DNA of 64,000 nt, from contig CAIRFN010000006.1 in assembly GCA_903877885.1 (NCBI GenBank), positions 3,342 to 67,341 on the forward strand. Reading direction: 5' to 3'. Shown piece by piece: positions 5,299 through 57,972 of the stretch. The position numbers were made by a program, and so were the translations under genes. The notes under the pieces were generated by a model. It did not search any database. It was not told the origin of the DNA and was given only the letters and a program-made list of their open reading frames with translations. This DNA is from an uncultured Candidatus Berkelbacteria bacterium (GTDB lineage Bacteria; Patescibacteriota; UBA1384; UBA12157). How positions within the stretch are numbered: the first letter of the stretch is position 1; each line of letters opens with the position of its first letter.

Positions 5299-5300
5299 TT

Positions 5301-41178: not shown

Positions 41179-41239
41179 TAATTAAATTAAATTAAAGAAA
41201 AAGGCCTGAAAGTCACCACAACTTCCAGGCCCTCATCTC

Positions 41240-41650
41240 TCAATACTCCTCAGCCAGCATCACCGTTAACCTGCGCTGGCACTCCGGAGATGTCGGGTCT
41301 TGCCAATAGCCCAATGATTGATCGTAGTAATCAATCTTCCAAAAAACTCTTTCCCGCTGCCAAATGAGCGAACCGAAGTCATGCTCACCATAGGGATCAT
41401 TGTCATCGGTAAACCGATCGTAATCGCGCACCGCGGCTAGTAACCCTTCGGGATCCGGTAAGTCCCGTGCTCCAGAAGTCATTAACACTCCATATCCCAT
41501 CCTACGGAACCCATCGTTCTTTTGCGCCACGTCCAAAGTTTGTACACAGTTCATTTTGACCTCCATTCTATTATCTTTAATCTCAAGAACAAGCGTATCG
41601 ACCTTCCGCCTGTCGACTGGAAGGCAAGGACAGCACGCTAAAATAGTCAA
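41240..41650 (-). CDS. Uncharacterised protein, paralog of the 40846..41178 ORF (N-terminally extended)
   Basis: 136 aa; C-terminal 100 aa align with the neighbouring ORF. Confidence 0.45.
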   Translation of the reverse strand: MTILACCPCLPVDRRKVDTLVLEIKDNRMEVKMNCVQTLDVAQKNDGFRRMGYGVLMTSGARDLPDPEGLLAAVRDYDRFTDDNDPYGEHDFGSLIWQRERVFWKIDYYDQSLGYWQDPTSPECQRRLTVMLAEEY

Positions 41651-41833: not shown

Positions 41834-42214
41834 ATGTCAAATTTAGAAAGTGAACAAGGAGAATTTAAATCAGAAGAAGAAAGACAAGCCGCAGAAGGTT
41901 TTGAAGCACCGGTTAATGGCCAACAAGAAATCAAAGAAACTGAAAATATCACTGTCCCGGAAAGAAATGGAAGAAATTTTATTCAGTCTATGCGAGAAAA
42001 ATTTCCCAAGATATCCGATGAAGACAAAAAAGCAATTACGGCAGGCATCCTGAGTGGTCTTATGGCGGTTACGGGAGTTGGCATGGCTCTTGGCGCAGGC
42101 ATTGATAAAGGGCTTACCGGAGCAGAAGCAATAGAGTTGGCTTCAGCTGGTGCTGGTTTTATGATGACGGGAATAATTGCATTAGGATCATTAGGGCAGA
42201 GAAGAACGCAATAA
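41834..42214 (+). CDS. Small acidic protein with Gly-rich hydrophobic C-terminus
   Basis: 126 aa, RBS AAAGGAG; N-terminal GEFKSEEERQAAEGFE motif shared with the 43444 ORF. Confidence 0.4.
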   Translation: MSNLESEQGEFKSEEERQAAEGFEAPVNGQQEIKETENITVPERNGRNFIQSMREKFPKISDEDKKAITAGILSGLMAVTGVGMALGAGIDKGLTGAEAIELASAGAGFMMTGIIALGSLGQRRTQ

Positions 42215-42227
42215 AAAGGAGATTATA

Positions 42228-42530
42228 ATGAACAATGATTTGAATTTAATCGAATTATCAAATAAAACTAAAAATGTACTAGTATCGGTTGGTTTTTCAG
42301 AAGAAGAAGCGAACAACCAATTAATGGACTTGTCGGAAATTATTACATCCGCTTTTGCTCAAAAAATGACAGACAAATCACTGTTAAACAACCCCGAAGA
42401 GACAAGAAGAATATTTTTTGAAACCGCTAAACCAATAGTTAAAGAATATCTTCAGAATATTAGTCAAAGTCTGAACGACGACGAAAAGAAAAAGCTATTT
42501 GATCAAATTAATAACTTGCCCGAAAAATAG
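42228..42530 (+). CDS. Hypothetical small protein
   Basis: 100 aa, RBS AAGGAG; no recognisable motif. Confidence 0.35.
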   Translation: MNNDLNLIELSNKTKNVLVSVGFSEEEANNQLMDLSEIITSAFAQKMTDKSLLNNPEETRRIFFETAKPIVKEYLQNISQSLNDDEKKKLFDQINNLPEK

Positions 42531-42561
42531 ATAAACGACGAAAATAAAGAAGGAGACAAAG

Positions 42562-43428
42562 ATGGGCGAATCACTGGGCTACATGCCAGAGGAAGAAATT
42601 GCAAAATTTGAAAAAGAACCTACGCAAGCTGAGCAACCTGTCGGGAATGAGCCCGGCGACCGGTTTGACGAACTTTTACTTGAACAGTTAGGACAATTTG
42701 AAAGAACTCAAACAGAACAGTTTCAAGCTACGAATGAAAGTTTGGAAAATTTTGTCAGAGAAATTAATGAAAAATTTTCTGCCGAAGATCAGAGAGAAAT
42801 CTACGATGCACTAACTTTAATGTTTACTCTGCATATTTATCAAAAAGATCGGCCAGAAGGAAGCCCTTATGTCAGTCACCCTCTGGCTGTTGCCCAAAAA
42901 GCCATCGGTATGTCGCCCAACCCGGACAAAGGATTGGTTATCGCAGCCTTAATGCATGATTCGGTTGAAGATCAAGCCGATAAATTAGCGTCTCTGACCG
43001 AGCAGACTGACACATCTCTAACGGACGAGCAAAAAGCTTTGACGGAAATTCAAACCAAATACGGTGAGAGAGTGGCAAATATTGTCTCACATCTATCAAA
43101 TCCCGATTTTGATGCCGTTTTAGCTAGTCAAGGTATTACCAAAGAAAATTCTCAATATAAAGAATTAAAAAATAAACTTTATGCCGAACATGTAGCGGAA
43201 GCCATTGAAGATCCTGATGTTTTGCGGATTAAATTGGCGGATTTTTCCGAAAACGCTTTAAAATTATCAAAATTACCAACCGAGACAGATGCTCAGATAA
43301 AGCAAAAACAAAAATATATTGATAAATACGTGCCGGTTATGAAAATTTTCGCCGATCGCCTGCAACGCGACAATCTTTTTCCGGAATATCAAACAGCATT
43401 AATTGAAGAATATAACAAATTAAAATAA
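42562..43428 (+). CDS. RelA/SpoT-type HD-domain protein (small alarmone hydrolase-like, (p)ppGpp pyrophosphohydrolase fold)
   Basis: ...YDALTLMFTLHIYQKDRPEGSPYVSHPLAVAQ...VIAALMHDSVEDQ matches the SpoT/Mesh1 HD motifs (HxxQ…YxxHP…HD…ED). Confidence 0.65.
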   Translation: MGESLGYMPEEEIAKFEKEPTQAEQPVGNEPGDRFDELLLEQLGQFERTQTEQFQATNESLENFVREINEKFSAEDQREIYDALTLMFTLHIYQKDRPEGSPYVSHPLAVAQKAIGMSPNPDKGLVIAALMHDSVEDQADKLASLTEQTDTSLTDEQKALTEIQTKYGERVANIVSHLSNPDFDAVLASQGITKENSQYKELKNKLYAEHVAEAIEDPDVLRIKLADFSENALKLSKLPTETDAQIKQKQKYIDKYVPVMKIFADRLQRDNLFPEYQTALIEEYNKLK

Positions 43429-43443
43429 CTAAAAAGGAGAAAA

Positions 43444-44067
43444 ATGTCAATTGAAGACAATGGCGAGTTCAAGTCTAAAGAAGAAAAACAAGCGGCCGAA
43501 CAGTTTGAATTAGAACAAGAGAATACTTCTTCACAAAACGAATTACAAACAGATCCTGTACTCGGTGAAGTCGATGCTTTTCTTGAAAGATGCAGATCAG
43601 GGCTTTCACAAGAAGAATCTAAACGTACAGGCAACGGATCAATCATATCTGAAATTCGTAATGCTACTCAAGAATGGAAAGATTTAGCCGCCAAATACAA
43701 TGAGTTATCCAATCAGATTCAAGGAGAAGATAGGACTGCGACAGAAGCAGAGTGGTCTGAACTAAATAAACTACAAAATAAGATAACTAAAAAACAAGCA
43801 GAAGCTATCTCAAATTACAATAAAGTTGCTAACGGCCTTTTACTGCCAAATAAAACAGAGCAGCATTCTAGAGGTGAAGCAGAAAAATCAAGACAAGAGG
43901 TTGACGATGCATACTGGCATATGCGACATGCCGAGCTTAATGGCGATCCCGATGATTTAACCGAGGCAAGATCTAATTACAAAAAATTATCCGAGGAACA
44001 TCAAACTCGTTCAAGCGATGTCAGACAAGACGAGAGAGATTTCGACGATCAAATGTCTGGAAGATAA
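43444..44067 (+). CDS. Hypothetical acidic protein (shares N-terminal motif with the 41834 ORF)
   Basis: 207 aa; MSIEDNGEFKSKEEKQAAEQFE... Confidence 0.4.
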   Translation: MSIEDNGEFKSKEEKQAAEQFELEQENTSSQNELQTDPVLGEVDAFLERCRSGLSQEESKRTGNGSIISEIRNATQEWKDLAAKYNELSNQIQGEDRTATEAEWSELNKLQNKITKKQAEAISNYNKVANGLLLPNKTEQHSRGEAEKSRQEVDDAYWHMRHAELNGDPDDLTEARSNYKKLSEEHQTRSSDVRQDERDFDDQMSGR

Positions 44068-44086
44068 CAAATAGAGAAGGAGAAAA

Positions 44087-44602
44087 ATGGACGAACAGCA
44101 AAATGAAAAAGAGCAAGCTTCGTTTGAAGAAAGCTTGAGCGATGAGCAAAGAAAAAAAATGGCAGGACAGATTACCGAATTGGGTGGCCAATTGCATGAC
44201 GAATGGCGCGCACCAAGAAAACAAGAAGACGGCACATTCGAGCCGCGAATAAAAACGACAAAAGATCAAGCTTGGATTGAAAAAAACGGAACCGACCAAA
44301 TAGATATCGCAAATAACTCTTATGAAAATTTACCGGAAGATTGGAAAGGCGAAAACAAAGCTTCAGCCGAAGTAGCAATTCCGGAAATTTATAAAGCTAT
44401 TTCTGAAGGAAAAGAATTAGATGATCAATTTATTGAAGAAACGAGCGATATAATTCATCAAAAATGGCTTGAGAGAAACGGTAGCTGGGCTCCCGCAGAA
44501 CAAAATAAACCATATGCGGAACTTTCCGAAGAAGAAAAAGAAAAAGACCGCGCAATTGTCAGAAAAGCGGTTGAAACTTATAAAGAAAACGCTACCAACT
44601 AA
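44087..44602 (+). CDS. Hypothetical acidic protein
   Basis: 171 aa, RBS GAAGGAG; followed by a terminator. Confidence 0.4.
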   Translation: MDEQQNEKEQASFEESLSDEQRKKMAGQITELGGQLHDEWRAPRKQEDGTFEPRIKTTKDQAWIEKNGTDQIDIANNSYENLPEDWKGENKASAEVAIPEIYKAISEGKELDDQFIEETSDIIHQKWLERNGSWAPAEQNKPYAELSEEEKEKDRAIVRKAVETYKENATN

Positions 44603-44623: not shown

Positions 44624-44666
44624 CCCGCAAAGTAAATCGCAAGATCGAAATGCGGGTTTTTGTTTT
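44624..44666 (+). terminator. Rho-independent terminator
   Basis: ACCCGCA...TGCGGGT stem + TTTTGTTTT. Confidence 0.55.
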
Positions 44667-44893
44667 GGCCTGTTTGTTTTATAAATGTCATTTTTAGATC
44701 TAAGCCGTAAATGACATTTTCCGCGAGAGCGAGCCGAAGCGAGATCTCTATACAATTAGAAGACAGGTGGAAGAAAACCCTTGATTTTTCTTGAATTATC
44801 CGTAGCTTTTCGCTACGATAAGATTGAGATTATTATACAAAATCATTTGATTAATTCTGGTGGATTCCCTGAAACAATAAGGAGAATAAAAGG

Positions 44894-47800
44894 ATGGGTG
44901 AATTTCAAAATCATAGTGTAGAATTTGATAATTTAGGTGGATTAACTTCTGAAGATCGGCAAGCAATTTTGATGCGAGGCGATTTAAGAAAGCGCAGTCA
45001 AGAACTCAAGGTTAACGCGCTTAATTTAAATCCACCAGAAAGTACGCCTGAACACAAAGCTTACTACGAACGAATTTTATCTTTAGTAAACCGTGAGGCA
45101 GATGGCGAAGAAAAGATGGATCCAGCTCAAGCCGAAGCCACTTTGGATGAAAAAGAAAAAGGTATGCGTGTTAAGATCGCCACCATGGGAGAAATTGCTC
45201 CTAACTTTGGCGGCTACTTGTATGCTAACTTAGCAAAATATGAGCAACTTGCCGGACAAGATTTTTCAGAGGATTTATCCAAATCAAAAGAATACATGGA
45301 CCGAGCGACTCATATTCCAAAACTCGTGCCTTCAAACCTGCTGCCGGATGCAATTACGCTTGGTATTCAAAAAAGATTTTTAGATACTCAAGAATTGCCA
45401 AGCAAAGAAAAAATTGCTCAAGCCGCCCAAATGGATCCAGAACTTATTAAATCATATGCTTTAGTTCTCCATGAAAATGAACGTGAAGATTTTCTAAAAC
45501 TTATCCCTGAGGATCAACGCCGCCAGATTGGTATTGAACTAGACACATCGGTGTCGAGTGTTTTACACCAATCGTTAATTGAAAAAAATACACCAGAAGA
45601 AGAGCAACGCCGCCAAGTCAGAATGCGTTTATTTAGAGAGTTAAGAAGCTCTCTATCAGAAACTGATCCGTCGGACAAAAAAACAGTTCAATTAATGGGT
45701 GAAGCTTTAGGAACTCTTGGCGAAGATGCCAGACAGTTGATCTTGGAACTCATTCGGGATGAAACGGATAGTCGAGAAGAAGGTGTAGATAGACAAACAG
45801 ATCATTTGCCCCGAATCATGAAAGTGATGATAGATAATTTTGATGATTGGCGTGGCAACGATATTATTTTGCAAACAGCAGCGTCTCCAGAATTAAATCA
45901 TCATATGTCTATTTATCTATTTGGCAAACTGGTAGATAAAGGATACTTACCAAAAGATGTTGCCGATTGGTGGAACACAAGAAAAACAACTGCTTCCAAT
46001 GAGGGTCGTGAGCCAGATGATGAAAAATTTAGGCTCGATATCCTAAAAGGTACGGTTGATGAATTAGGAGTTATTCCTAATAAAGAAATTTTGGAATTCA
46101 TTTCAAAGGATGAAAACTGGCAAGGTGATGATGGGCAAACAGTTCCGGTTTCCGAGCGTTTTGAAAGAATTGCCTCATCTCAAGCAGAATTCAGTGGAGT
46201 TAAGTCTAACAGTGAGCTAGTAGATTTACTAAAAAATAATGAAAACAAAGCGATGATTTATTTCCTTCTTCACGGCGGAGATGATCGCTTTAATTTAATT
46301 AACAATTATAGTTTTGATAAATTTAAGGAAATGCTTGGACTTATATCCGATTTGGAAATAAATGAACGACCGATTCAAAGTTTCAAAGAAACCTTGCTAA
46401 ATTCTGGAATGAACGAGGGTCAAGCAAATGATGTTATTACCAGACTAAGAGCAGGCCATTTTCCACTGCCAAATTCACAACAGGCATATCAAGAGGTTAG
46501 CTTTGAAATCTCGGAAAATGCTGCTTTAAATAATGCTAACGGCGAAATCGGTCAGGTTTTGGGTAAAGATCAGTTGGGCGTGGTTTTAACTTTCCCAATG
46601 TATCGTGAATACTTGGAAGCCGACGGGAGCGAACAAGCACAAGAAATGTTTGCCAGAATGCAGCAAGCCACTACTTTTACCGACAGACAGGCAATAATTG
46701 CCGAGATAAACGGATTATATCCGGATTTTCAAGAGAGAATTAAAAACGATTTGCAAGATTCTTGGATTAAATTCGGCGATAAAATGGTTATTGAAACAAC
46801 TCTGGATCAAGTTTTAACCAGCGATCAAATCCAGATTCATGGCGAAGAATTATTGCCTAAACTAGATGCTAAAAGAATTGATTTAAAACGCATAAATAAA
46901 GAATTGCTTATTGCCTTAAAGAGTGAAAATAGAAATGTTTCGGATCTAAACAGTGAAATTTCTCGTAAAAAGAAAGCCAGAACTGGCCTTGAACAAGGAT
47001 TGGCCAGGCAAACTGATGTAGGCAAGCGCGGTGAGCTTCAAAGAAAAATTGACGAAATCGATTCAGATATTGCTAACTTAGAAACTCGTCGTGCTGCAGT
47101 TGGAGAAATGAAAGTTGATGATCGTTTTACGGGATTAAGCAAGGAAGAAAAAGAGGCTGAAGTTGATCGCTTAAGCCAAGAAATAATTGCTTTGACCGAA
47201 AAAAGCCCGAGCGCGATTTTTACATTCATTACCATGCAGGTTTTAGGCGAACAAAGGTTAAGAGAAAACGATATTACTTTAGTCAAAGAAATGGAAAGCC
47301 ATTTGCAGGGACCGTTTCAAACTATCAATGATGTTCTGACCTATGAACGACCAAAAACAGAAAGCAAAAAACGAACCCGTGTTGGTTTACAATATTTGGA
47401 TAAAGTTGATCGTTTGGCAACTATGGTCCGTTTTGCCGACAGTAAAATTTGTTGTTTTTCCAGCTCTAATTATGAGATGCGGGTTCAACATAATACGCCT
47501 AATAAAATTTGGGTGGCTTCGATTAATAAAGACCCAATGAGTTTTGTTCTTTCGATGGAAATGCCTCAAGTCCAAACTGATCAACCAGGCAAAAAGGTAA
47601 ATGAAAACATCGGGTTTATCTTTGGCAGTTTTGCTCAAGATAATGAGGGCAAACTTGGCGTCATGATGAACGGCATTTACTACGCCCCTGGCATTGAAGA
47701 CGCAAGACAAGTCGAACAAATTATGGGTGGAGTTGAGAAAATTTTCGAGGGCTTACCCATTAATACCGAAGTGATAGCAACCCAATATGGCGGTTCAGTT

Positions 47801-47986
47801 AAAATGCCGGAGAGTTTTTCAACGGAACCGATTGAGATGACACGATTAAGAGCTATTGACGACGGTCGTGGTAGGCCGGAGTCAATGATATATGATGATT
47901 TGGCGACTGGTACCGATTTAAACAAACCTCATATGTATGGCGGCTCCGCTTGGCACAGATCGCTAGAAGGTAGGACTAATGGGTGA
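44894..47986 (+). CDS. Large hypothetical protein (1030 aa) heading the tandem paralog array
   Basis: Long ORF with a good RBS (AAGGAGAATAAAAGGATG); its stop overlaps the start of the first paralog. No domain recognisable by eye. Confidence 0.5.
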   Translation: MGEFQNHSVEFDNLGGLTSEDRQAILMRGDLRKRSQELKVNALNLNPPESTPEHKAYYERILSLVNREADGEEKMDPAQAEATLDEKEKGMRVKIATMGEIAPNFGGYLYANLAKYEQLAGQDFSEDLSKSKEYMDRATHIPKLVPSNLLPDAITLGIQKRFLDTQELPSKEKIAQAAQMDPELIKSYALVLHENEREDFLKLIPEDQRRQIGIELDTSVSSVLHQSLIEKNTPEEEQRRQVRMRLFRELRSSLSETDPSDKKTVQLMGEALGTLGEDARQLILELIRDETDSREEGVDRQTDHLPRIMKVMIDNFDDWRGNDIILQTAASPELNHHMSIYLFGKLVDKGYLPKDVADWWNTRKTTASNEGREPDDEKFRLDILKGTVDELGVIPNKEILEFISKDENWQGDDGQTVPVSERFERIASSQAEFSGVKSNSELVDLLKNNENKAMIYFLLHGGDDRFNLINNYSFDKFKEMLGLISDLEINERPIQSFKETLLNSGMNEGQANDVITRLRAGHFPLPNSQQAYQEVSFEISENAALNNANGEIGQVLGKDQLGVVLTFPMYREYLEADGSEQAQEMFARMQQATTFTDRQAIIAEINGLYPDFQERIKNDLQDSWIKFGDKMVIETTLDQVLTSDQIQIHGEELLPKLDAKRIDLKRINKELLIALKSENRNVSDLNSEISRKKKARTGLEQGLARQTDVGKRGELQRKIDEIDSDIANLETRRAAVGEMKVDDRFTGLSKEEKEAEVDRLSQEIIALTEKSPSAIFTFITMQVLGEQRLRENDITLVKEMESHLQGPFQTINDVLTYERPKTESKKRTRVGLQYLDKVDRLATMVRFADSKICCFSSSNYEMRVQHNTPNKIWVASINKDPMSFVLSMEMPQVQTDQPGKKVNENIGFIFGSFAQDNEGKLGVMMNGIYYAPGIEDARQVEQIMGGVEKIFEGLPINTEVIATQYGGSVKMPESFSTEPIEMTRLRAIDDGRGRPESMIYDDLATGTDLNKPHMYGGSAWHRSLEGRTNG

Positions 47987-48878
47987 AAATTTAGAGCCTT
48001 TTGAAATTCAACGCGAGGCATTAGCTGAAAGATTAAAACTCAAAGAACAATGGGAGTCACAGATTAGTATTCTTAATGAAACAGGAATTCTACAATTGCT
48101 CCCAGAAAGTCAGGAGCTAGGGATCGTTGGTATTGATGGTGAAGAATATCCAATTCCAGATTATAAAGAAATCATAGATCGTCTTACACCAGAAAAAGCA
48201 CAAATTCTGGAGCAGAAAATTGAACAAGGGTTTAGTAAAATGCTATTAGTGCCTTTTGGTATGTCCATGGAGACCTTAGCTCAAAGGTACAGAGAAGTAG
48301 TTCTTAAAAAAAGTAATGAAGAAACTCTTTTGGATACTGATGGTTTAAGGATTGAGTTAGACAAAAATAACCCCTTCCCAAACCTAATATCCCTGAACAC
48401 TGACATCGATAAAAGACTGTCCTACTATCCAAGTAATTTTGAGGAGCAAGAGGGCTTCACTAAGTCTGAGATACTCAGTAGAGGTGCCGGGTTTAAGATC
48501 GAGTTTATCGAGGATCGACCAGACTTATCTGATAACCGGCAAGCTCAAGGTGGAAGATTCAGTCCACCATCCAGGAGTATGCCAGCCAGGTATCTAGAGA
48601 TAATCCAGAACGATGAAAACATGTCGAATGAACAAGGATGGACGATGGAAACGTGGTTAACATATGCTATTACGAATTTAAAAGAAAGAAACCAACAAAT
48701 TGATAGTAATCGTTGGGGAAAGTTTTCTTGGCTTTTGGGCGCCTATTTCCCAGCACAAGCTCCTAGTGTGCCAATAGTGATGTATGCAGGTTGGTCTAAA
48801 GGCAAAGCAGAATTATTTAGTGGTGAATTTGATGATAGGTCAACCAACGCTAGTCTACGTACTTCAGTGGAGATATAA
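47979..48878 (+). CDS. Tandem paralog 1 of the 7-member family (no variable repeat)
   Basis: Conserved N-terminus LEPFEIQREALAERLKLKEQWESQISILNETGILQLLPESQELGIVGIDGEEYPIP; C-terminus ...ASLRTSVEI. Confidence 0.6.
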   Translation: MGENLEPFEIQREALAERLKLKEQWESQISILNETGILQLLPESQELGIVGIDGEEYPIPDYKEIIDRLTPEKAQILEQKIEQGFSKMLLVPFGMSMETLAQRYREVVLKKSNEETLLDTDGLRIELDKNNPFPNLISLNTDIDKRLSYYPSNFEEQEGFTKSEILSRGAGFKIEFIEDRPDLSDNRQAQGGRFSPPSRSMPARYLEIIQNDENMSNEQGWTMETWLTYAITNLKERNQQIDSNRWGKFSWLLGAYFPAQAPSVPIVMYAGWSKGKAELFSGEFDDRSTNASLRTSVEI

Positions 48879-48880
48879 CT

Positions 48881-49798
48881 ATGAATAATGAATCATTACA
48901 ACCATTTGAAATTCAACGTGAAGCGTTAGCTGAGCGATTGAATCTAAGAGAACAGTGGGAATCACAAGTTAAAATCTTGAATGAGACTGGTATTTTGGAG
49001 ATCCTTCCAGAGGCCCAAGAGTTGGGAATCATTGGTATTGACGGTCGAGAGCATCCAGTACCAGATTTTCAGGAAATTATGTCTCGAATTTCGCCGGAGC
49101 AGATGGAAGTCTTAGAGAAAAAGAATGAGCAAGGATTCAATAAAATGGTCCTAGTTCCTTTTGCTGTACCGCTAGACATATTGATTGATCGATACAAAAA
49201 GCTTCTTATTGAAAAAGATGCGGAAGGATCACTCTCATCAACTGATGGTTCAAAACTTAATCTCGATCGCGACCAACCAATCTATGTTTGGGACAAATAT
49301 ACCGGTGCTGATGCAAGCGGTGAGTTAGTTTATTTCCCGAATACATTTGATCAACAAAATCACGGTGGTAAAACAAAAAATACCCTAATACAAGAAGGTA
49401 AATCTTGGCAATTTGAATTACTTGAAGAAAATATTAATATCCCTGCTAAAGGTCAGGGAGAGATACTTGACGGCCGCAAACAACTAGAAGCCGGACAATC
49501 ACCAAATCAATATTTAAAAGAATTACAAATCGATCCTCAATATCAAAATGAGGTCGGCTTGACACCAGAAGCATGGTTGGTTTTAGCTATAACCCAATTA
49601 AAAGAAAACCATGGCCAAATTGACGATTATCAAGGTCAAGGCAAAATAAATTTTCTTACGGGTGCCTATTTCCCCGGTTCTGACAGTGTCCCGCGCGCGC
49701 GCTGGAGCCGTGACGGTCGTCGGGCGTTCTTGGACAGGAGCGTTCCCTCTGGCTCGCTTTCGAGCATTGGGTGTCGCTCCTCGGTGGAAATTCAGTAA
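48881..49798 (+). CDS. Tandem paralog 2; DGR target gene carrying variable repeat VR1 at its 3' end
   Basis: Same conserved N-terminus. The last ~38 codons (…VPRARWSRDGRRAFLDRSVPSGSLSSIGCRSSVEIQ) are the VR copy of the template repeat. Confidence 0.7.
   Translation: MNNESLQPFEIQREALAERLNLREQWESQVKILNETGILEILPEAQELGIIGIDGREHPVPDFQEIMSRISPEQMEVLEKKNEQGFNKMVLVPFAVPLDILIDRYKKLLIEKDAEGSLSSTDGSKLNLDRDQPIYVWDKYTGADASGELVYFPNTFDQQNHGGKTKNTLIQEGKSWQFELLEENINIPAKGQGEILDGRKQLEAGQSPNQYLKELQIDPQYQNEVGLTPEAWLVLAITQLKENHGQIDDYQGQGKINFLTGAYFPGSDSVPRARWSRDGRRAFLDRSVPSGSLSSIGCRSSVEIQ
49676..49789 (+). repeat. DGR variable repeat VR1
   Basis: ~114 bp matching the template repeat at 54708..54821, except at the template's adenine positions (all 17 differences fall on them). 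Confidence 0.8.
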
Positions 49799-49893
49799 TT
49801 TGATATTTGGCTTTTAAACTTTCTTTTTTCTTTATCTTTGATTCGGTATCCCGCCTTCGGCGGGCCACTGCAAAAATTTTAAAGGAGATAGAT

Positions 49894-50781
49894 ATGGAGA
49901 GTAATATGAGTGAAAATCTTCAACCATTTGAAATACAGCGCGAAGCACTTGCTGAACGGCTAAAACTCAAAGACCAGTGGGCATCACAGGTTAAGATGCT
50001 GAATGAAGCGGGTGTTTTGGAATTGCTTCCAGAGAGTCAGGAGCTAGGAATTATCGGAATTGATGGACAAGAATATGCAATACCTAGTTATGAACAAATT
50101 TTAGGTCGTATTACTCAAGGAAAAGCTGAGATTTTAGAAAATCAAACAGAAAACGGTTATAAGCAATTAATTTTAACTCCTTTCGCAATGCCTTTGAGGC
50201 AACTGTGTAAATTAGTTGAAGGATCATTTAAGAAAGTCTTATCAGAAAACCAAGTTGTTGATGCTTATGGAAGTGATGAAAGAATCAATTCTGATAACTT
50301 TATTGAAGATAATGGAAATATTCTCGATTCCGATATTAACGGAGAAATGGTTTACTACCCAAACTCAGACGATAGCAAAGACGGTTTGACAAAAATAGAT
50401 TGCATTAAAGAAAATGGTGGTTGGGAAATTGATTTTATTGCCAAAGAACCTCAGAAATACATACAAGATATCAACAAGCAAAAAAAGGCCATGGTGCAAG
50501 GTGGATTTAGAGGATTAACTCTTGAAAGCTGGTTGACTCAGTCAATGAATTTTTTCCAGAACGAGAAAAAGTTTTCAGATTATCTCGAACCATGTCTTTT
50601 GGCGGGATCGTCTCTGCGAGAGAAGAGGACTATCCCGGCAGCATGGTTTGCTGATAATCGATCTAATTACAAAGGTAAATATTTAGTAATAAAAACTTTA
50701 GAAGAAAATCGTAATCAAAATAAAGCATTTGGCGGTTTTTCGCAAACTGACGGAAATGCGCGTTTCAGCGTGAATTTATAA
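49894..50781 (+). CDS. Tandem paralog 3
   Basis: Start chosen at ATG 49894 after RBS AAAGGAG; the ORF track starts earlier at 49807. N-terminus MESNMSENLQPFEIQREALAERLKLKDQW... Confidence 0.6.
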   Translation: MESNMSENLQPFEIQREALAERLKLKDQWASQVKMLNEAGVLELLPESQELGIIGIDGQEYAIPSYEQILGRITQGKAEILENQTENGYKQLILTPFAMPLRQLCKLVEGSFKKVLSENQVVDAYGSDERINSDNFIEDNGNILDSDINGEMVYYPNSDDSKDGLTKIDCIKENGGWEIDFIAKEPQKYIQDINKQKKAMVQGGFRGLTLESWLTQSMNFFQNEKKFSDYLEPCLLAGSSLREKRTIPAAWFADNRSNYKGKYLVIKTLEENRNQNKAFGGFSQTDGNARFSVNL

Positions 50782-50790
50782 AGGGAAAAT

Positions 50791-51675
50791 ATGAATGAAT
50801 CCTTACAACCATTTGAAGTCCAAAGAGAAGCTTTAACTGAAAGGCTAAAACTCAAAGAGCAGTGGGAATCGCAAATAAAAATACTTAACGAAGTTGGAAT
50901 TCTTGAAATTCTACCTGAAAGTCAGGAGCTGGGAATCATTGGAATTGATCAAAAAGAATATCCAATCCCCAATTATGAAGATATTCTTAATAAAATTACT
51001 CAAGAACAAGCAGACTTAGTAACCCAAAAAACTGAACAGGGGTTTAATAAGTTAATATTGGTTCCCTTCGCTAAATCCCTTCAAGAAACCATAGAACTCT
51101 ATGCTAGATTATTAGTCCAAAAAAAACACGAAAAGACCCTTGTAGGGGCTGAAAACGAAGAATTTGACCTCGATATCAATAATCCTATCGTTGATATGAC
51201 TAAAAATGATTCTTTGTTTTATATTCCATCAAATGGAAAAAGATTCACGAAATCGGAATTTCTTGTAAGCGAAATGCGTTACCCGGGTTGGCAAGTCGCA
51301 TTAATCGAAGATTCTCCCGTCCCGTTCGAGAAAGATTCAGATAAAAAGGAATATGGCTACAAACAACCAAATGGCGATTTAGTAAGAGATTGGAGTCATC
51401 AGCTAAAGCTAATGAAAGAGAACGAATCTTATATCGGCGAAGAGGAAATATCTCCAGAGGCATGGCTTGCATATGCCATCACTAACTTAAAGGAAAAAAA
51501 CCAGCAGATTGATTTTCAAAATGAATCAATTGACAGGTGTTGGCTTGGTGCTTTTAGTAAAAAAGGAGAAACTGTTTACTCTTTATTTAAAAACAATCAA
51601 ATTAACTTTCATATCTATTCTCCCTTTGAGAGGGAGAAATCAAAAGCTATTTTTAGGTCGGTCGTACAGATTTAA
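50791..51675 (+). CDS. Tandem paralog 4
   Basis: MNESLQPFEVQREALTERLKLKEQWESQIKILNEVGILEILPESQELGIIGID... Confidence 0.6.
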   Translation: MNESLQPFEVQREALTERLKLKEQWESQIKILNEVGILEILPESQELGIIGIDQKEYPIPNYEDILNKITQEQADLVTQKTEQGFNKLILVPFAKSLQETIELYARLLVQKKHEKTLVGAENEEFDLDINNPIVDMTKNDSLFYIPSNGKRFTKSEFLVSEMRYPGWQVALIEDSPVPFEKDSDKKEYGYKQPNGDLVRDWSHQLKLMKENESYIGEEEISPEAWLAYAITNLKEKNQQIDFQNESIDRCWLGAFSKKGETVYSLFKNNQINFHIYSPFEREKSKAIFRSVVQI

Positions 51676-51704
51676 ACTATTTAAATTTAGATTGAAAAGG
51701 TAAT

Positions 51705-52592
51705 ATGAATGAATCATTACAACCATTTGAAATCCAAAGAGAATCCTTAGCTGAAAGACTAAAACTAAAAGACCAATGGGAATCTCAAATTCGTGTACTA
51801 AATGAGGCTGGTATTTTAGAAATTCTTCCTGAAAGCCAAGAATTGGGAGTTATTGGCGTTGATGGTCAGCAATATCCGATACCAGAATACTCTGATGTGC
51901 TTAACCAACTAACACCAGAAAATTTGGAATTATTAGAGGCAAAACAGGAAGAAGATTATAACAAACTAATTATTACGCCGTTTGCGATGCCTTTAAAACA
52001 ACTAATTGATAGATATTCTTCTCTTCTAAAGAGAAAAGACAAAACAGGAGAACTTAAAGATTCACAAGGAAATAGTATAAATATATCTGACGGTGATGAA
52101 CCTATTAAGTTACCTGTTAAACTTATCGAAGATGGTTACGATGACACACTCTTGTATTTTGGAAAATTGGGCGAAGAACAAGAGACTGGTAAAACAAAAA
52201 AGAAATCGATAGAGCAAGGAAAAATTTGGCACTTTTGTCTGGTTCAGGATACAAACTCTCTTGAAAACAAGAGGATTGAGACGAAAATCGATTCTTATCT
52301 TCAAGAAGGCGGTTTATCTGGATATACGCTTGAAGATTGGTTGATGCATGCAATTACGAATTTGCAAGAAAGTGGAAAACAAATAGATTGCACTGATTCC
52401 AAAGAAATAATCCCAAATTGGTTAATGGGATCGTACCTTCCAAAAGATGATTGTTATTTCAGAGCAGCCTATGATATTCACGATCCCTCTTCTACTGGCG
52501 CTGTCATCGGCGGCGCAAAAGGAGAAATTTTGAAAAGTCGAAAGAATTTTATTAATTTTAGAAACTTGATTGAGCTAGGAAGCAATTTATGA
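51705..52592 (+). CDS. Tandem paralog 5
   Basis: MNESLQPFEIQRESLAERLKLKDQWESQIRVLNEAGILEILPESQELGVIGVDG... Confidence 0.6.
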   Translation: MNESLQPFEIQRESLAERLKLKDQWESQIRVLNEAGILEILPESQELGVIGVDGQQYPIPEYSDVLNQLTPENLELLEAKQEEDYNKLIITPFAMPLKQLIDRYSSLLKRKDKTGELKDSQGNSINISDGDEPIKLPVKLIEDGYDDTLLYFGKLGEEQETGKTKKKSIEQGKIWHFCLVQDTNSLENKRIETKIDSYLQEGGLSGYTLEDWLMHAITNLQESGKQIDCTDSKEIIPNWLMGSYLPKDDCYFRAAYDIHDPSSTGAVIGGAKGEILKSRKNFINFRNLIELGSNL

Positions 52593-53506
52593 ATGAATCC
52601 TTGCAACCTTTTGAAACCCAGTGTGAGGCACTTGCCGAACGATTAAAACTCAAGGAACAGTGGGAATCACAGGTTCAGTTTCTCAATGAAGTAGGTATTT
52701 TAGAATTATTACCTGAATCGCAAGAATTGGGCATTGTTGGAATTGATGGTCGGGAATACCCAGTTCCTGAATATTCGGAGATAATGCAAAAAATCACCCC
52801 GGAAAAGGCGGAGATTTTGGAAAGAAAATCCGAACAAGGATTTAATAAAATGCTCTTAGTGCCTTTCGCGATACCTTTAGAAAGGTTGATAGATCGTTAT
52901 GAACGAGAATTAGTTAAACAATCTGAAAATGGCGGTGTAATCAATTCTAATGGTGAAAAGATAGAAATTAATCCGAAAAATCCAATAACTTTTATGGATA
53001 ATGAATTTAAAAGCTCAGATCTAACTAAAAAGTTAGCCTACTACCCAACTCATCCCGATTATGGTGGCGAAACGAAATCAGAAATAATTTCAAAAGATAG
53101 CCCCTGGAAATTTCATTTTGTTGAAGATTTAGACCATATTCCTCAGCAAGAGGAAGGTCAAACTATTGGCGGCAGAAAACAGCTTGAAACAGGTATGAGT
53201 CCAAGACAATATTTACTTCAGGTACAACGAAATGCTATGTATTCGAACGAACAAGGTATGACACCAGAAGACTGGCTTTGTAATGCAATTTTAAATTTAA
53301 GAAATAACGGAAAGCAAATTGATAGCGCTGGAAGAAACGGTCAAACTTGTTATTTAATCGGTTCTGGTTATCAATATGGCCCGTCAGGTGAAGAAATAGC
53401 TAGTGCTGGATGGGGTCGCATAAAAAGTGATTCTGCTTTTTTGGGTGCCGACTTCAATAGTGAATCACAACAAAATTTTGGCGTTAGAACTGTAGTAGAA
53501 ATCTAA
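52589..53506 (+). CDS. Tandem paralog 6
   Basis: MNESLQPFETQCEALAERLKLKEQWESQVQFLNEVGILELLPESQELGIVGIDG...; C-terminus ...NFGVRTVVEI. Confidence 0.6.
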   Translation: MNESLQPFETQCEALAERLKLKEQWESQVQFLNEVGILELLPESQELGIVGIDGREYPVPEYSEIMQKITPEKAEILERKSEQGFNKMLLVPFAIPLERLIDRYERELVKQSENGGVINSNGEKIEINPKNPITFMDNEFKSSDLTKKLAYYPTHPDYGGETKSEIISKDSPWKFHFVEDLDHIPQQEEGQTIGGRKQLETGMSPRQYLLQVQRNAMYSNEQGMTPEDWLCNAILNLRNNGKQIDSAGRNGQTCYLIGSGYQYGPSGEEIASAGWGRIKSDSAFLGADFNSESQQNFGVRTVVEI

Positions 53507-53515
53507 AGGAATATT

Positions 53516-54421
53516 ATGACAGAAAACTTACAACCATTCGAAATTCAACGCGAAGCATTTGCCGAGCGGTTAAATCTGAAAGAACAATGGGAATCACAGG
53601 TCAAAATACTTAATGAAGTAGGTATTCTTGAGATACTGCCCGAAAGTCAGGAATTAGGGATCATTGGTATTGACGGTCAAGAGTATCCAGTACCAGATTT
53701 CCAGGAAATTATGTCTCGAATTACCCCAGAACAGATGGAAGTTTTAGAAAAGAAAAATGAGCAAGGTTTTAACAAAATGCTTATTACTCCCTTTGGCATG
53801 CCTCTGGACATCCTAATTAGTAGGTATAAAGAACTCTTACTTAAAAAAGATTCTGAAAGCACGTTACTGGCTACCGATGGCTCGAAACTTGATCTTGATA
53901 GAAATGAACCAACATGGGTTTGGGAAGGATACAACGGTGCTGACGCAAACGGAGGGCTAGTTTATTTTCCAGAAAGCTTCACCCAAAATCATGAGGGGCA
54001 AACTAAACAAGAGATATTGGCTAACTCAGGTGCTTTCAAAATCGAGTTTATTGAAGATACGCCAGACATGCCTCGAAACGAACAAACTCAAGGCGGCCGC
54101 ATTAAACCTACTCCAGGTAAAAAAGCGTCTCAGTATCTTGAAATCATGCAAAACGATGAAAATATGACCAACGAGCATGGTCTCACCCCTGAAACATGGC
54201 TGACTTATGCTATTACTAACTTAAAAGAAAGAAACCAACAAATAGATGACTGGCAAGGTCAAGGTAAGGGTTCCTGGCTTACCGGTGCTTATTTCCCGGC
54301 TTCTGGCTTTGTCCCGTGCGCGGACTGGGACCGTGACGCTCGTCTGGCGTACTTGGACGGGAGCGGTCCCTCTGTCTCGTTTTCGGGCTTTGGGTGTCGC
54401 TCCTCGGTGGAAATAAAATAG
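53516..54421 (+). CDS. Tandem paralog 7; DGR target gene carrying variable repeat VR2 at its 3' end
   Basis: Conserved N-terminus; C-terminal …VPCADWDRDARLAYLDGSGPSVSFSGFGCRSSVEIK is the VR copy. Confidence 0.7.
   Translation: MTENLQPFEIQREAFAERLNLKEQWESQVKILNEVGILEILPESQELGIIGIDGQEYPVPDFQEIMSRITPEQMEVLEKKNEQGFNKMLITPFGMPLDILISRYKELLLKKDSESTLLATDGSKLDLDRNEPTWVWEGYNGADANGGLVYFPESFTQNHEGQTKQEILANSGAFKIEFIEDTPDMPRNEQTQGGRIKPTPGKKASQYLEIMQNDENMTNEHGLTPETWLTYAITNLKERNQQIDDWQGQGKGSWLTGAYFPASGFVPCADWDRDARLAYLDGSGPSVSFSGFGCRSSVEIK
54311..54412 (+). repeat. DGR variable repeat VR2
   Basis: Matches the template repeat except at its adenine positions; shares the identical 3' end GGGTGTCGCTCCTCGGTGGAA. 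Confidence 0.8.
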
Positions 54422-54707
54422 TTTTGAAATTTGTTCTTTAATTTTTCTTTATATTTTTAACTTTAGGTGCTGGCGTTAGCCAGCTAGACGCAATTGGGCT
54501 AATGAACCCGCCTTGGGCGGGGCGCCCAAAATTTGTTTTAGAAAATAAGTGAAACTTCGCTAACCGCGAACACTTTCGAAAAACAGCAAACAAATGAATT
54601 TCCACGTGAGCCCCGTTCATTCCGATTTGAGAGGAATGAAATATGAAAGCTAATTCTAAATTGGATGGCTGCGGCTGTCTGATGAATAATGCGGCGGGGT
54701 CACAAAT

Positions 54708-54821
54708 GGTTCTGACAATGTCCCGAACGCGAACTGGAACCGTGACGATCGTCAGGCGAACTTGAACAGGAACGATCCCTCTAACTCGAATTCGAACATT
54801 GGGTGTCGCTCCTCGGTGGAA
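54708..54821 (+). repeat. DGR template repeat (TR), non-coding, rich in AAC codons
   Basis: GGTTCTGACAATGTCCCGAACGCGAACTGGAACCGTGACGATCGTCAGGCGAACTTGAACAGGAACGATCCCTCTAACTCGAATTCGAACATTGGGTGTCGCTCCTCGGTGGAA. Every mismatch to VR1 and VR2 lies at an A of this copy. Confidence 0.85.
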
Positions 54822-54842
54822 GTTCTTTTTGTTTTAAGAAAG

Positions 54843-55884
54843 GGCTTAATATCAAAAACGTGCACCTAGTTTTGCAAAATATAGTTAATTATTTTGTCTT
54901 TTAGTTCTTTGGTAAAGCCTCTGTGAATGTTTACTTTTTGTTTTAGCCAACTAAAACTGCCCTCTAAAGAATTGGTGGTTTTGGGGATATTAAGTTCAGG
55001 ATATTTTAGATACGTAAAAAGATATGGCAAATTAGTTTTAAGGCTTCTAAAAGCCGCTCGCGTTCTCTTGTGAGTATAATGCCATCGGTTTGTAATTTGG
55101 TCGGTTGTTCTCTCCTTTAGAAACTCTTGCCACTTTTGGTGCCATAGGAGTAGTTTTTGGGTAAATTCTTTCTCGGTGGCATAGGTCAAAGTATCGCTAA
55201 TAGCTTTGAGTTCTAAGCTTGCTTCTAACTTTGGGTTTAAGGTTAAATAACGCTGGATAATTTGTTTTTGATGAAAATGACACATCTGGACTGGGACATC
55301 TAAAAATAGATTTCTCACTCCGGGTCTGCCATCCAAAACAATAGCTTTAAACTTAAAGCCTTGATTTTCTAGGGTAATTCTTCCCATTAGGTACTCGTTG
55401 ATTGTCTCGAATATAACAGGTTTGAAATAGAGATTACGTTTGAGCTCGACCGCTCTAAAAACCAGAAAACCGTATGCTCTGCCAAAGAAAGTAGCATCGA
55501 CAACAAAAACTAGACCATCAGGTGTGGTCTTCTTTTTAATGGTTTTCGCTTTCTCGATTTTAGTTCTAACCCAGTTGATGCTTTTGCCGTACTCGCAAGA
55601 GAGATTCTTGAGAGTCTGGCGCTTTCCGACATATTTTCCCAGGATAATTTGTTCTAATTTTTGAGGTCTGGATTTCGTTTGAAAATAACTTTGGCAATCT
55701 TTGCAAAAATATCTTTGCTTTTTTGCCGAGCGAGTACTTTTACCCTTTTTTACGCAACGATTTGAACTGCATTTAGGACAGTTTTTTTAACCATGTTTAC
55801 ATCCTCCTGTAAATTAACTTTAAATTACTGGTTCAAATATATCACATTCAGGTTAAGTTAGGTGCACGTTTTTGATATTAAGCC
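54843..55884 (-). mobile_element. IS1-family-like insertion sequence (1042 bp) with 26-bp terminal inverted repeats and 8-bp target-site duplication TAAGAAAG
   Basis: IRL GGCTTAATATCAAAAACGTGCACCTA (54843..54868) is the exact reverse complement of IRR (55859..55884). The direct repeat TAAGAAAG sits at 54835..54842 and 55885..55892. Confidence 0.8.
54866..55794 (-). CDS. IS1-like transposase (InsA-type zinc finger fused to DDE domain); reading frame requires a -1 shift in an A7 run at codon 4
   Basis: After RBS AGGAGG and ATG at 55794, the 0-frame stops after 14 codons. The -1 frame gives ...CPKCSSNRCVKKGKSTRSAKKQRYFCKDCQSYF... (the IS1 InsA C-x2-C…QRY-x-C-x2-C finger). It continues to ...TNSLEGSFSWLKQK... 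and a stop at 54866. Confidence 0.6.
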
Positions 55885-56202
55885 TAAGAAAGAGATCGAA
55901 TCCATCCGCCAAGCATGCGGCCGATTTCTCTTAAATCAGATTGCGCTTGGAAAATTTTGGTTTCATTCCCTAAATGCAGTTCCAAGCAGGCTCTTAGTTT
56001 CAGAGTAATTATTTCTAATCGGCCGGAAGCTTTAAGGAGATAAGAAGATTTTAGGGTTTTCGGCGCATTTTTAGCCATAATTAGCTCTTCAAGCAGATCC
56101 AAAATCGAATTTTCAAGACTCATGCCCAAAGAATAGCGCCATCTTTTTTCGAGCTTGGCGTTAAATTCAAGAATGAATTTATATAAATCGTAGGATTGAT
56201 TA

Positions 56203-56222
<20 letters not shown>
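55884..56222 (-). CDS. avd: DGR accessory variability determinant (Avd-like four-helix-bundle protein)
   Basis: 112 aa; ...RWRYSLGMSL... and C-terminal ...EIGRMLGGWIRSLS resemble Bordetella bAvd (…EVGRILGSWIARV…). Adjacent to the RT gene. Confidence 0.7.
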
Positions 56223-57214
<992 letters not shown>

Positions 57215-57246: not shown

Positions 57247-57972
57247 TCACCGCCTATTGTGTGCGGTTTCGATGAAGCGTTTGATTAGCAACTTAATACC
57301 AAGTTTTATAACCTGATAACCGTTCAATAAGCACCATAATAACGCCGGAAATATGACTCCCGTTAAAAACGTCTTGATTGTCTGGAAAAAGTTGTATTTC
57401 GAGTTTGCGACTAAACTCCGGTATAATCTCTCGTACTGGAATTTGTAGCCTTCGACCATTTTTTTGTTTAAATCAAGATAGGTCATAACCTGCATGGCCG
57501 CGTTTTCGTCTACGATTCGACGCATCATTTCCCGACTTTCCCTTTGGGACAAAATATTCAGACTTCCTTCCCAAAGTATTTCTCGATCAATAACGGCCAC
57601 CTTTTCATGAATCAATCCGGGTAGTTGGAAAACACAGACTCCCAACTCTTCGTAATCTTTTATAGCACAGGAAATCTCTGTTCGCATTAGATAGTCGTGC
57701 TCCTCAAGAGGACGAGTGAAGATAAAAACACAAATATTTCTTCTTCGAAGCTCAGTTAATGATTTTCTGAAAAACTCCGATCGGAACTTGCTTACAAATG
57801 GACTGTAAATGATAATTTCTTTTTTGGCCTTGAGCATATCTTGGACGAAAACCCGATAAAATGTCCTTTCATTATAAAGATCGAGTTTTTGTAATTCATG
57901 TAATTTTTTGGCGTCGATTTCGTTCTGGATGTTCATCAAATGTTGTCTATGCGCCGGCGAATTAATTGGCAT
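57247..57972 (-). CDS. Phospholipase D-family (single HKD motif) nuclease-like protein with hydrophobic C-terminus
   Basis: ...LIHEKVAVIDREILWEGSLNI... = HxK(x)4D(x)6GSxN motif; 241 aa. Confidence 0.6.
   Translation of the reverse strand: MPINSPAHRQHLMNIQNEIDAKKLHELQKLDLYNERTFYRVFVQDMLKAKKEIIIYSPFVSKFRSEFFRKSLTELRRRNICVFIFTRPLEEHDYLMRTEISCAIKDYEELGVCVFQLPGLIHEKVAVIDREILWEGSLNILSQRESREMMRRIVDENAAMQVMTYLDLNKKMVEGYKFQYERLYRSLVANSKYNFFQTIKTFLTGVIFPALLWCLLNGYQVIKLGIKLLIKRFIETAHNRR

Follow-up and report, generated by a model that had tools for sequence, protein, structure and literature searches.

A tandem array of predicted lectin-fold DGR-target paralogs and a conserved companion gene in a Patescibacteria genome

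INTRODUCTION

Why should a bacterium keep seven adjoining, strongly diverged copies of one gene when a DGR rewrites only two of them, and what does the large gene that opens the same operon have to do with them? The question is raised by a locus in the window, the whole 64 kb stretch of Patescibacteria (CPR) DNA analyzed here. It touches on a wider one, because the targets of Patescibacteria DGRs usually have no recognizable membrane or conserved domain, and whether they are genuinely non-membrane-bound is still to be established (Roux et al. 2021, PMC8144416).

RESULTS

The operon consists of eight plus-strand ORFs between positions 44894 and 54421, namely one 1030-aa gene (BIG) and then seven abutting paralogs of 294 to 305 aa (Table 1); the original prediction of such an operon was sound, and every one of its ORFs was found where it had been placed. 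BIG and paralog 1 overlap by 8 nt and paralogs 5 and 6 by 4 nt, and purine-rich AGG/GGAG-type stretches lie upstream of most paralog starts. In the case of paralog 3, AAAGGAGAT precedes the ATG at 49894, and initiation at the TTG at 49807 is improbable. The sole sizeable intergenic gap in the array (95 nt) follows the VR-carrying paralog 2, and terminator-like sites are located at 44652 and 54513. The 3' flanks of the two VR genes had been described as homologous; what they share is a short AT-rich stretch and a common GC hairpin, CCCGCCTT(C/G)GGCGGG, at 49850-49864 and 54507-54521, so the homology is only partial.

Table 1. Positions of the operon genes and of the DGR features in the window
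Feature	Position	Strand	Description
BIG	44894..47986	+	1030 aa, acidic
Paralog 1	47979..48878	+	299 aa; no TR match; start overlaps BIG stop codon
Paralog 2	48881..49798	+	305 aa; DGR target, carries VR1
VR1	49677..49792	+	in paralog 2; 19 mismatches to TR, 18/19 at TR adenines
GC hairpin	49850..49864	+	CCCGCCTTCGGCGGG; inside the 95-nt gap after VR1
Paralog 3	49894..50781	+	295 aa; no TR match
Paralog 4	50791..51675	+	294 aa; no TR match
Paralog 5	51705..52592	+	295 aa; no TR match; aberrant C-terminal end
Paralog 6	52589..53506	+	305 aa; no TR match
Paralog 7	53516..54421	+	301 aa; DGR target, carries VR2
VR2	54301..54412	+	in paralog 7; 21/21 mismatches to TR at TR adenines
GC hairpin and terminator-like stem	54507..54529	+	CCCGCCTTGGGCGGG, then terminator-like stem and T-run; closes operon
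TR	54708..54824	+	encodes GSDNVPNANWNRDDRQANLNRNDPSNSNSNIGCRSSVEV; 29 adenines, 18 variable codons
IS element	54843..55884	-	1042 bp; between TR and avd stop codon
avd (bAvd, PF22296)	55884..56222	-	E 2.5e-10, above gathering score
DGR reverse transcriptase	56203..57214	+	RVT_1 matches on both halves

The locus has the almost wholly adenine-restricted TR/VR differences, the Avd and the DGR-type RT by which a DGR is recognized, the RT gene being frameshifted as assembled. The 64 kb window contains one TR and only two matches to it, VR1 and VR2, as expected from the earlier report of a DGR variable repeat in two of the paralogs. Judging from the mismatch pattern, TR appears to be copied by Avd and RT with adenine-specific errors that overwrite the VR in just two paralogs, 2 and 7, and about 3.5e16 protein variants could be made from it. 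Two other assemblies of the same organism (L055, identical to window positions 34894-55884, and L056) are 100% identical to the window through both VRs, each VR being the same across three independent assemblies. A second TR serving the other five paralogs was considered and rejected, as each C-terminus, searched by BLAST over the full 64 kb, matched nothing but itself. The IS element is bounded by perfect inverted repeats of 25 bp, has duplicated an 8-bp target, TAAGAAAG, and encodes a Zn-ribbon and DDE-type transposase.

As assembled, the RT gene lies in two frames, split at a (GA)18 tract (56722-56757). One more GA unit, or two fewer, yields an intact 337-aa RT, and the RT motifs IGNLTSQ and YGDD are present after the +1-unit correction. 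The RT gene was considered as a phase-variable gene switched by the length of a simple sequence repeat, for which both ON and OFF lengths would be expected. A (GA)n tract occurs in the RT gene of 16 distinct loci, and its length differs between near-identical contigs (14 units in L013, 13 units in L014). Among the 11 scorable tracts with n of at least 7, none is in frame and nine have the same +1 offset; the conserved tract puts the RT gene one repeat unit out of frame almost every time. A frameshift-stimulating RNA structure 3' of the tract was considered and rejected, since the signal is inconsistent (mean z -0.6 over 18 loci) and strong in the window only (z -3.5). If functional, the tract would to our knowledge be the first intrinsic control, a switch or a throttle, of DGR mutagenesis.

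All seven paralogs can be aligned over their full length as a single fold, with a mean pairwise identity of 68% in alignment columns 1-100, 27% in the central part and 28% over the VR. The ~95-aa N-terminal module described earlier is real (33 of 115 positions are invariant across the paralogs), but "near-identical" was too strong a term for that 68%. The paralogs are under selection, with a pN/pS ratio of 0.25 in the module versus 0.69-0.76 elsewhere, and constraint is much stronger on the N-terminal ~95 residues than on the remainder. At their C-termini the paralogs end in RTSVEI, RSSVEIQ, RFSVNL, RSVVQI, RNLIELGSNL, RTVVEI and RSSVEIK (paralogs 1 to 7), so a similar motif in most of them, with paralog 5 as the outlier, had been fairly described.

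The module DNA is 64-72% identical between paralogs, and pS between paralogs is saturated at 0.62-0.92, the sole exception being the VR of paralog 2 versus 7 (0.22). The nucleotide-identical copies by which assembly duplicates were to be recognized are not what we found, and because of these values duplication in the assembly is ruled out and the paralogs are old duplicates. A duplicated gene-plus-flank cassette had also been suggested for paralogs 2 and 7; their pS of 0.71-0.75 outside the VR and the shortness of the flank likeness argue against a recent duplication of this kind. Since the synonymous sites are saturated outside the VR, the similarity of the two VRs is explained by repeated overwriting by the common TR.

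The AF2 model of paralog 7 (pLDDT 96.3, pTM 0.94; the structure predictions cover single chains) indicates that the C-terminal half of the paralogs is a C-type-lectin fold, as in known DGR variable proteins, and this C-type-lectin/FGE fold carries the VR at its C-terminal end (last ~39 codons). Pfam and NCBIfam gave zero matches to any paralog at E <= 1, and at that level none to FGE-sulfatase (PF03781), DUF1566 or another described target domain. Nothing was returned for any paralog by PADLOC and PHROGs, or by a PDB sequence search with the paralog family profile (A3). The seven proteins are acidic (pI 4.5-5.0) and all lack a signal peptide and any hydrophobic or membrane segment. The comparison with polymorphic effectors drawn earlier found no support, because the C-termini share one fold instead of being swapped toxins, the genes abut without small ORFs in between, and immunity-like genes, secretion signals and TM segments are absent. 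The companion analogy, a ligand-binding family whose N-part is constant and whose C-terminus varies, in part through the DGR, is supported by the predicted lectin fold and the two DGR targets.

With 564 clusters at 50% identity, the N-module family far exceeds the BIG family in breadth. In P0176, P0229 and P0236 a relative of the module-plus-lectin unit forms the C-terminal part of a fusion with an AAA_5 ATPase; these fusions are cytoplasmic with a DGR-type C-terminus and lie on short contigs, one adjoining a CobT_C/vWA-like gene and AbiEii. One further locus (L052) holds a tandem array of N-module proteins without BIG. In view of the fusions, the BIG-less array and the wider family, the N-module has no need of BIG.

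BIG is all-alpha over residues ~19-817 (solenoid or bundles), followed at residues ~825-1023 by a conserved alpha/beta domain with the motifs RFADSKICCFSS, GFIFGSF, NGIYY, RLRA and YDD; D848, S849, C853 and the YDD motif are invariant. The databases and literature searched hold no annotation for it: Pfam, NCBIfam, PADLOC and PHROGs returned nothing, including any nuclease, helicase or nucleic-acid-binding family, and there was no PDB-sequence or fold match, nor one of the C-terminal profile (A6) to PDB sequences. An NTPase role was considered and is unsupported, because BIG has no Walker A motif. By visual reading, the C-terminal secondary-structure order b-a-a-b-b-b-a-b resembles GNAT, without a significant family or fold match; one distant relative has a weak match to Acetyltransf_3 (E = 0.15), and no acyl-CoA-binding motif Q/RxxGxG/A was seen by eye in the BIG consensus.

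What the original prediction overlooked is that the 1030-aa gene is a conserved companion of this DGR clade in other genomes. In about 27 of the 32 informative loci, a BIG homolog flanked by targets stands directly downstream of the DGR RT. The recurring order is T-TR-Avd(-)-RT-BIG-T (L003-L006, L008, L010-L013, L016, L019, L022, L023, L025, L031-L033, L035, L037, L041, L042, L048 and L053). The protein is ~50% identical across Magasanikbacteria, Moraniibacteria, Buchananbacteria, Nomurabacteria and Parcubacteria MAGs. In three loci BIG stands with targets while RT and Avd are missing (L017, with 10 kb on each side, L007 and L009), and in L001/L002, where BIG and targets are also present, RT is reduced to a 53-aa remnant. 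BIG accompanies this type of DGR in many Patescibacteria and stays beside the targets where RT has been lost.

These arrangements also bear on a possible, though doubtful, alternative, that BIG is a DGR accessory factor (for cDNA handling, target-site recognition or integration) and the array a set of independent targets. BIG is mostly coupled to the RT gene and not to a target gene, so a retrohoming role fits as well: in those 27 or so loci it begins at or inside the last codons of RT, with overlaps of 40 nt in L003, 17 nt in L004, 8 nt in L005 and 7 nt in L006. It is also better conserved than the targets (~50% versus 30-45% identity). Against it, BIG stays intact beside intact targets where RT/Avd is absent or a remnant, as in L017, L007, L009 and L001; moreover, in the window BIG is separate from RT, and its translational coupling is to target 1. 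The absence of a Walker motif and of nuclease, helicase or nucleic-acid-binding family matches speaks against it too, as do BIG relatives of 1459-1641 aa (L028-L030) with no target-family, RT or Avd match in the stretch fetched. The neighbors of L028 (His biosynthesis, DUF2130 and membrane-protein genes) are uninformative.

DISCUSSION

The locus is probably a Patescibacteria (CPR) DGR cassette that has undergone expansion and rearrangement. On balance, we favor the explanation in which it is an old DGR-target array with BIG as the partner of the variable proteins, and it is this partnership that we infer. BIG would act with the variable proteins, not in retrohoming, as a common scaffold or effector, working through its alpha-solenoid body and the conserved Cys-containing alpha/beta domain. 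Docking would fall to the constant N-module that the small proteins have in common, and recognition to the exchangeable lectin-fold face. The five template-less paralogs, whose ORFs are intact and whose N-terminal ~95 residues are strongly constrained, may represent fixed specificities, and the array would be a repertoire of specificity subunits, two evolvable and five archived, serving one intracellular partner. The N-module may, however, do no more than support the lectin-fold unit structurally; the high pTM points to a single compact body, and this would weaken the docking idea. The occurrence of the N-module apart from BIG, and the long BIG relatives (L028-L030) with no target-family match in the stretch fetched, also count against the partnership.

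A bolder version, which we offer only tentatively, is a novel intracellular system in which DGR-diversified lectin specificity subunits join a BIG effector or scaffold and RT is gated by (GA)n slippage. The slippage would then be a programmed -2 frameshift or a repeat-length switch, and diversification would be rare, with five frozen, archived specificities kept beside two evolvable ones.

It is unlikely that there is no functional link at all, with BIG an unrelated fellow traveler, the TR-less paralogs decaying relics and the constrained N-terminus a requirement of the fold. Such decay would agree with the nearly neutral middle and VR regions (pN/pS 0.7-0.76 at saturation) and with paralogs 3 and 5, where the VR-equivalent region has indels and scaffold residues are lost; in paralog 3 the middle region has a deletion and the VR-equivalent region an insertion. 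The lack of any function for BIG from the searches points the same way. Yet seven ORFs are intact despite saturated synonymous sites, the spacing is tight and AGG/GGAG-type stretches stand before most starts, and BIG keeps its place across Patescibacteria classes at ~50% protein identity when its other neighbors are wholly different. Very improbable is a cargo of a conjugative or integrative element whose products act on another cell as episymbiont host-interaction effectors, for although Replic_Relax, two DUF3768 proteins and DUF2268 are encoded directly upstream of the array, a TraG/VirD4-like coupling protein and a serine recombinase farther upstream and an IS element within the cassette, in other genomes the cassette has housekeeping neighbors (genes for ribosomal proteins, FtsZ, PriA and enolase) and no linked transfer genes, and the paralogs have no secretion signal.

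The explanation that we favor, an old target array with BIG as partner, can be set against known systems. Among the closest are the Patescibacteria "clade 2" DGRs of architecture B3, with target, TR, inverted avd and RT in this order (Wu et al. 2018, PMC5758913; Roux et al. 2021, PMC8144416). Their targets, like those in the window, have no recognizable transmembrane or conserved domain, whereas the window has a rearranged order (BIG, 7 targets, TR, IS, avd, RT) and an unusually high number of targets. No mention of a conserved ~1030-aa gene after RT was found in either paper, and Paul et al. 2017 might mention the gene or the (GA)n tract. The locus gives the question of Roux et al. a handle, a target family defined structurally by lectin fold and constant N-module and found both in many copies, as a repertoire, and fused to AAA_5. 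A further handle is BIG itself, a large and highly conserved gene without annotation that moves with the cassette and is kept after RT is lost, and if BIG is indeed the partner of the variable proteins, this would be an entry point to the purpose of DGR diversification in episymbiotic bacteria.

Mtd (Bordetella phage, 1yu0), TvpA (Treponema denticola, 2y3c) and TaqVP (Thermus aquaticus, 5vf4) are C-type-lectin-fold DGR variable proteins. The paralogs differ from them in having no Pfam membership, a distinct and strongly conserved ~95-residue N-module and a seven-gene tandem array. TvpA is a lipoprotein, and unlike it the paralogs have no lipoprotein or signal sequence. The NTPase-CLec conflict-system sensors are likewise DGR-diversified (Kaur et al. 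2020, PMC7159879; Dore et al. 2024, PMC10907252; category g1/UVR4 of Wu et al.), and the AAA_5-fused relatives of our unit recall them, as does the sensor-plus-effector logic; in the window, by contrast, the lectin unit is a stand-alone protein of 300 aa and the putative effector or scaffold a separate one with no NTPase motif. In the cyanobacterial multi-target DGRs (Vallota-Eastman et al. 2020, PMC7517822), as here, one TR serves several paralogous targets and extra paralogs have ceased to match it, but the two differ in target family, in host lineage and in domain content, and of the two only the present system has the constant, putative partner gene.

The tandem array and its template repeat

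The retroelement in this region is a diversity-generating retroelement (DGR) with one template repeat (TR), two current variable repeats (VRs), and accessory (Avd) and reverse transcriptase (RT) genes. The TR holds 29 adenines and 18 codons changeable by adenine mutagenesis, from which a diversity of about 3.5e16 protein variants was computed. The original prediction placed VRs in two of the seven tandem target-family genes (paralogs 1 to 7), and the TR indeed matches the 3' ends of paralogs 2 and 7, the final ~30 nt being identical across all three repeats. Elsewhere in the 64-kb window we found no further TR match, and the ends of the other five paralogs matched neither the TR nor any other template in the window.

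Features of the DGR and the target array
Feature	Position	Strand	Description
BIG gene	44894-47986	+	ORF, 1030 aa
VR of paralog 2	49677-49792		19 mismatches to TR, 18/19 at TR adenines
VR of paralog 7	54301-54412		mismatches to TR at adenines 21/21
TR	54708-54824		116-117 nt; encodes GSDNVPNANWNRDDRQANLNRNDPSNSNSNIGCRSSVEV
IS element	54843-55884		1042 bp; exactly between TR and avd stop codon
bAvd gene	55884-56222	-	PF22296; downstream of TR
RT gene	56203-57214	+	RVT_1; downstream of TR
(GA)18 tract	56722-56757		splits RT gene

The predicted positions of all eight ORFs, those of the paralogs and of BIG, the large protein encoded upstream of them, agreed with the ORF coordinates. The genes have an operon organization: paralog 1 (start 47979) overlaps the end of the BIG gene by 8 nt, and the paralogs abut or overlap throughout, as predicted, except after paralog 2, where the gap is 95 nt. 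The likeliest start of paralog 3 is ATG 49894, preceded by AAAGGAGAT, rather than the upstream TTG. Because terminator-like hairpins with T-runs flank the array (44652-44673 and 54513-54529) and a pattern scan of the + strand found none between the paralog genes, BIG and the seven paralogs would fit a single operon at the pattern level.

Divergence of the paralogs

End-to-end alignment gave 37-58% identity to paralog 1, with mean pairwise identities of 68% over alignment columns 1-100, 27% in the middle and 28% in the VR-equivalent end. Even the best-conserved 300 nt are only 64-72% identical in DNA among copies, and synonymous differences are saturated in every pair (proportion 0.62-0.92), which together rule out assembly duplication. 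At saturated pS, pN/pS is 0.25 in the conserved first ~95 residues (N-module) versus ~0.7 elsewhere; the five paralogs lacking a TR match are intact and constrained.

When paralogs 2 and 7 are compared, synonymous sites are saturated (0.71-0.75) in the N-module and the middle but reach only 0.22 in the VR region, so the VRs have been homogenized by the shared TR. The homology proposed for the 3' flanks of these two genes has a real core: both flanks are AT-rich over a stretch and have a GC hairpin in common (CCCGCCTT(C/G)GGCGGG). It does not stand as a trace of recent gene duplication, which the saturated divergence outside the VR region excludes.

Identity and spread of the target family

The paralogs are acidic (pI 4.5-5.0) and have a lectin fold; by fold and anatomy they are DGR variable proteins, an identity of which we are highly confident. 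They matched no Pfam, NCBIfam, PADLOC or PHROG model and, judged by sequence, fall outside every described sequence family. The family is small (57 clusters among 5.8 billion), almost all metagenomic, with several members sharing a contig. An exhaustive profile search using just the N-module recovered 564 clusters at 50% identity, 310 of them at E <= 1e-10. Most matches are 300-420 aa long and carry the module at their N-terminus or close to it; in a few of 740-1098 aa (P0176, P0229, P0236) it is internal, behind an AAA_5 ATPase. In these three (745-1098 aa; loci L057 and L058), the ATPase is N-terminal and of MoxR/dynein type, and the N-module and lectin unit form the C-terminus; the neighbors of the fused gene at L057 include a CobT_C/vWA-like gene and one for an AbiEii toxin.

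Another locus, L052, carries four tandem distant paralogs of 413-423 aa (5150-10186) directly 3' of an RNase H gene, so tandem arrays of the family are not unique to the window. Among the Pfam-annotated gene calls within 8 kb there, no BIG, RT or Avd was called.

Gene-order linkage of BIG to the variable proteins

BIG matched no family in any library; its homologs (63 clusters, ~50% identity) come from Patescibacteria MAGs and are all unnamed or "hypothetical". Its most conserved part is the C-terminal domain, with the motifs RFADSKICCFSS, W.ASI..DP.SFV, N.GF.FG.F, NGIYY, GG, RLRA and YDD, which are kept where the domain stands alone in proteins of 176-360 aa. By eye, strands and helices follow one another in this domain much as in a GNAT fold, a likeness that no test bore out. 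At locus L051, a chimeric ORF (5383-6333) joins an N-terminally truncated target protein, ending where its VR region begins, directly to BIG residues ~846-943 (RFADSKICCFSS...); it is either a cassette deletion remnant or a genuine fusion.

Forty-two distinct loci containing a BIG homolog were retrieved and searched, using HMMs for the target family and for BIG plus the RT and Avd of the window as queries. Linkage of BIG to the DGR is conserved, and the recurrent order is target(+), TR, avd(-), RT(+), BIG(+) and a final target on either strand. In about 27 of the 32 loci whose upstream sequence is long enough, the end of the RT gene meets or runs into the start of BIG, with overlaps of 7-40 nt in L003-L006. 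Where both flanking targets are visible, the VRs of both differ from the local TR at adenines only (11/11 up to 19/19). Intact BIG also adjoins intact targets with no RT or Avd at L007, L009 and L017 (the last with 10 kb on either side), an RT remnant of only 53 aa precedes BIG at L001/L002, and the window's BIG gene, lying apart from the RT, is coupled to target 1. Because of the adenine-only VRs on both flanks, the occurrence of BIG without RT and this coupling to target 1, we tentatively favor a functional link of BIG with the variable proteins over a role in retrohoming, itself a plausible reading. Against strict dependence on BIG, the target family is wider than BIG, no BIG was called by the distant array beside the RNase H gene, and the longer BIG relatives at L028-L030 have no DGR in the stretch fetched.

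A (GA)n tract in the RT gene

Adding one GA unit to the window's tract, or removing two, gives an intact 337-aa RT that aligns over its length with an unsplit homolog. Tracts occur at the same codon of the RT, immediately ahead of the GIPIGNLTSQ motif, in 16 separate loci (the window, L004, L005, L008, L010, L012, L013/L014, L019, L022, L023, L025, L031, L036, L037, L041 and L053; listed tracts 7-18 units), whose BIG proteins are only ~50% identical. None of the 11 scorable tracts with n >= 7 is in frame (chance at random phase ~0.012, or (2/3)^11); nine need a +1 (equivalently -2) shift and two a +2 shift. Where the tract is absent or has n = 5, the RT gene is one uninterrupted ORF. Clean adenine-specific VR differences occur at several loci with an out-of-frame tract, so the RTs there were active, at least at some earlier time.

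Three readings would fit these sequences. A programmed -2 ribosomal frameshift is possible because, after a slip of two bases, GAG and AGA pair perfectly again; no consistent RNA structure was found downstream among the loci compared. Transcriptional slippage may fit as well, as may a DNA repeat-length ON/OFF switch on DGR mutagenesis, normally one unit from ON. Tract lengths in the near-identical contigs L013 and L014 are one unit apart. Our literature search found no published report of the tract.

The IS element and the neighborhood

Perfect inverted repeats of 25 bp bound the IS element, which is flanked by a target duplication of 8 bp (TAAGAAAG, 54835-54842 and 55885-55892). It encodes a Zn-ribbon plus DDE-type transposase that lacks an in-frame ATG downstream of an A7 run. 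Another assembly of the organism (L055) is identical through the IS end and then enters a restriction-modification region instead of avd/RT, indicating that the IS is multi-copy or the population heterogeneous. The window's IS/avd junction is probably correct, backed as it is by the target duplication and by the canonical order found in other genomes.

Five small acidic genes upstream of BIG (41834-44602, +) are conserved together with the array in L055 and L056, a further assembly. Those at 41834 and 43444 share the starting motif GEFKSxEExQAAExFE, and 42562-43428 encodes an HD_4 domain protein. The outer neighbors are mobile-element- or defense-like. On the upstream side these are Replic_Relax, DUF2268 and a pair of DUF3768 genes (39294-41650), beyond which lie TraG-like and serine recombinase genes. 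Housekeeping genes surround the cassette in other genomes. Downstream of the RT (57247-57972) lies a PLD-type protein with a PADLOC MkoC/DrmC model match and a hydrophobic C-terminus.

Proposed mechanism and comparison with known systems

The paralogs may act as exchangeable units of recognition, of which two can still evolve and five are archived. Through the constant N-module they would contact a common partner, most plausibly BIG, whose conserved C-terminal domain would provide the output. We lean slightly toward this picture as a whole; docking through the N-module is, taken by itself, a rather doubtful idea.

The conserved large companion gene BIG, the definition of the target family and the array size with mixed active and frozen copies appear to be new against the literature read here. 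Known before were the fold, the logic of TR and VR, DGRs with several targets and a gene order of B3 type. The AAA_5-fused N-module proteins correspond to the NTPase-linked CPR DGR targets described by Wu et al. 2018 (PMC5758913). Roux et al. 2021 (PMC8144416) describe CPR clade-2 DGR targets as being without transmembrane or conserved domains. The paralogs agree with this description, since they contain no hydrophobic segment, the highest Kyte-Doolittle mean over 19 residues being 1.28.
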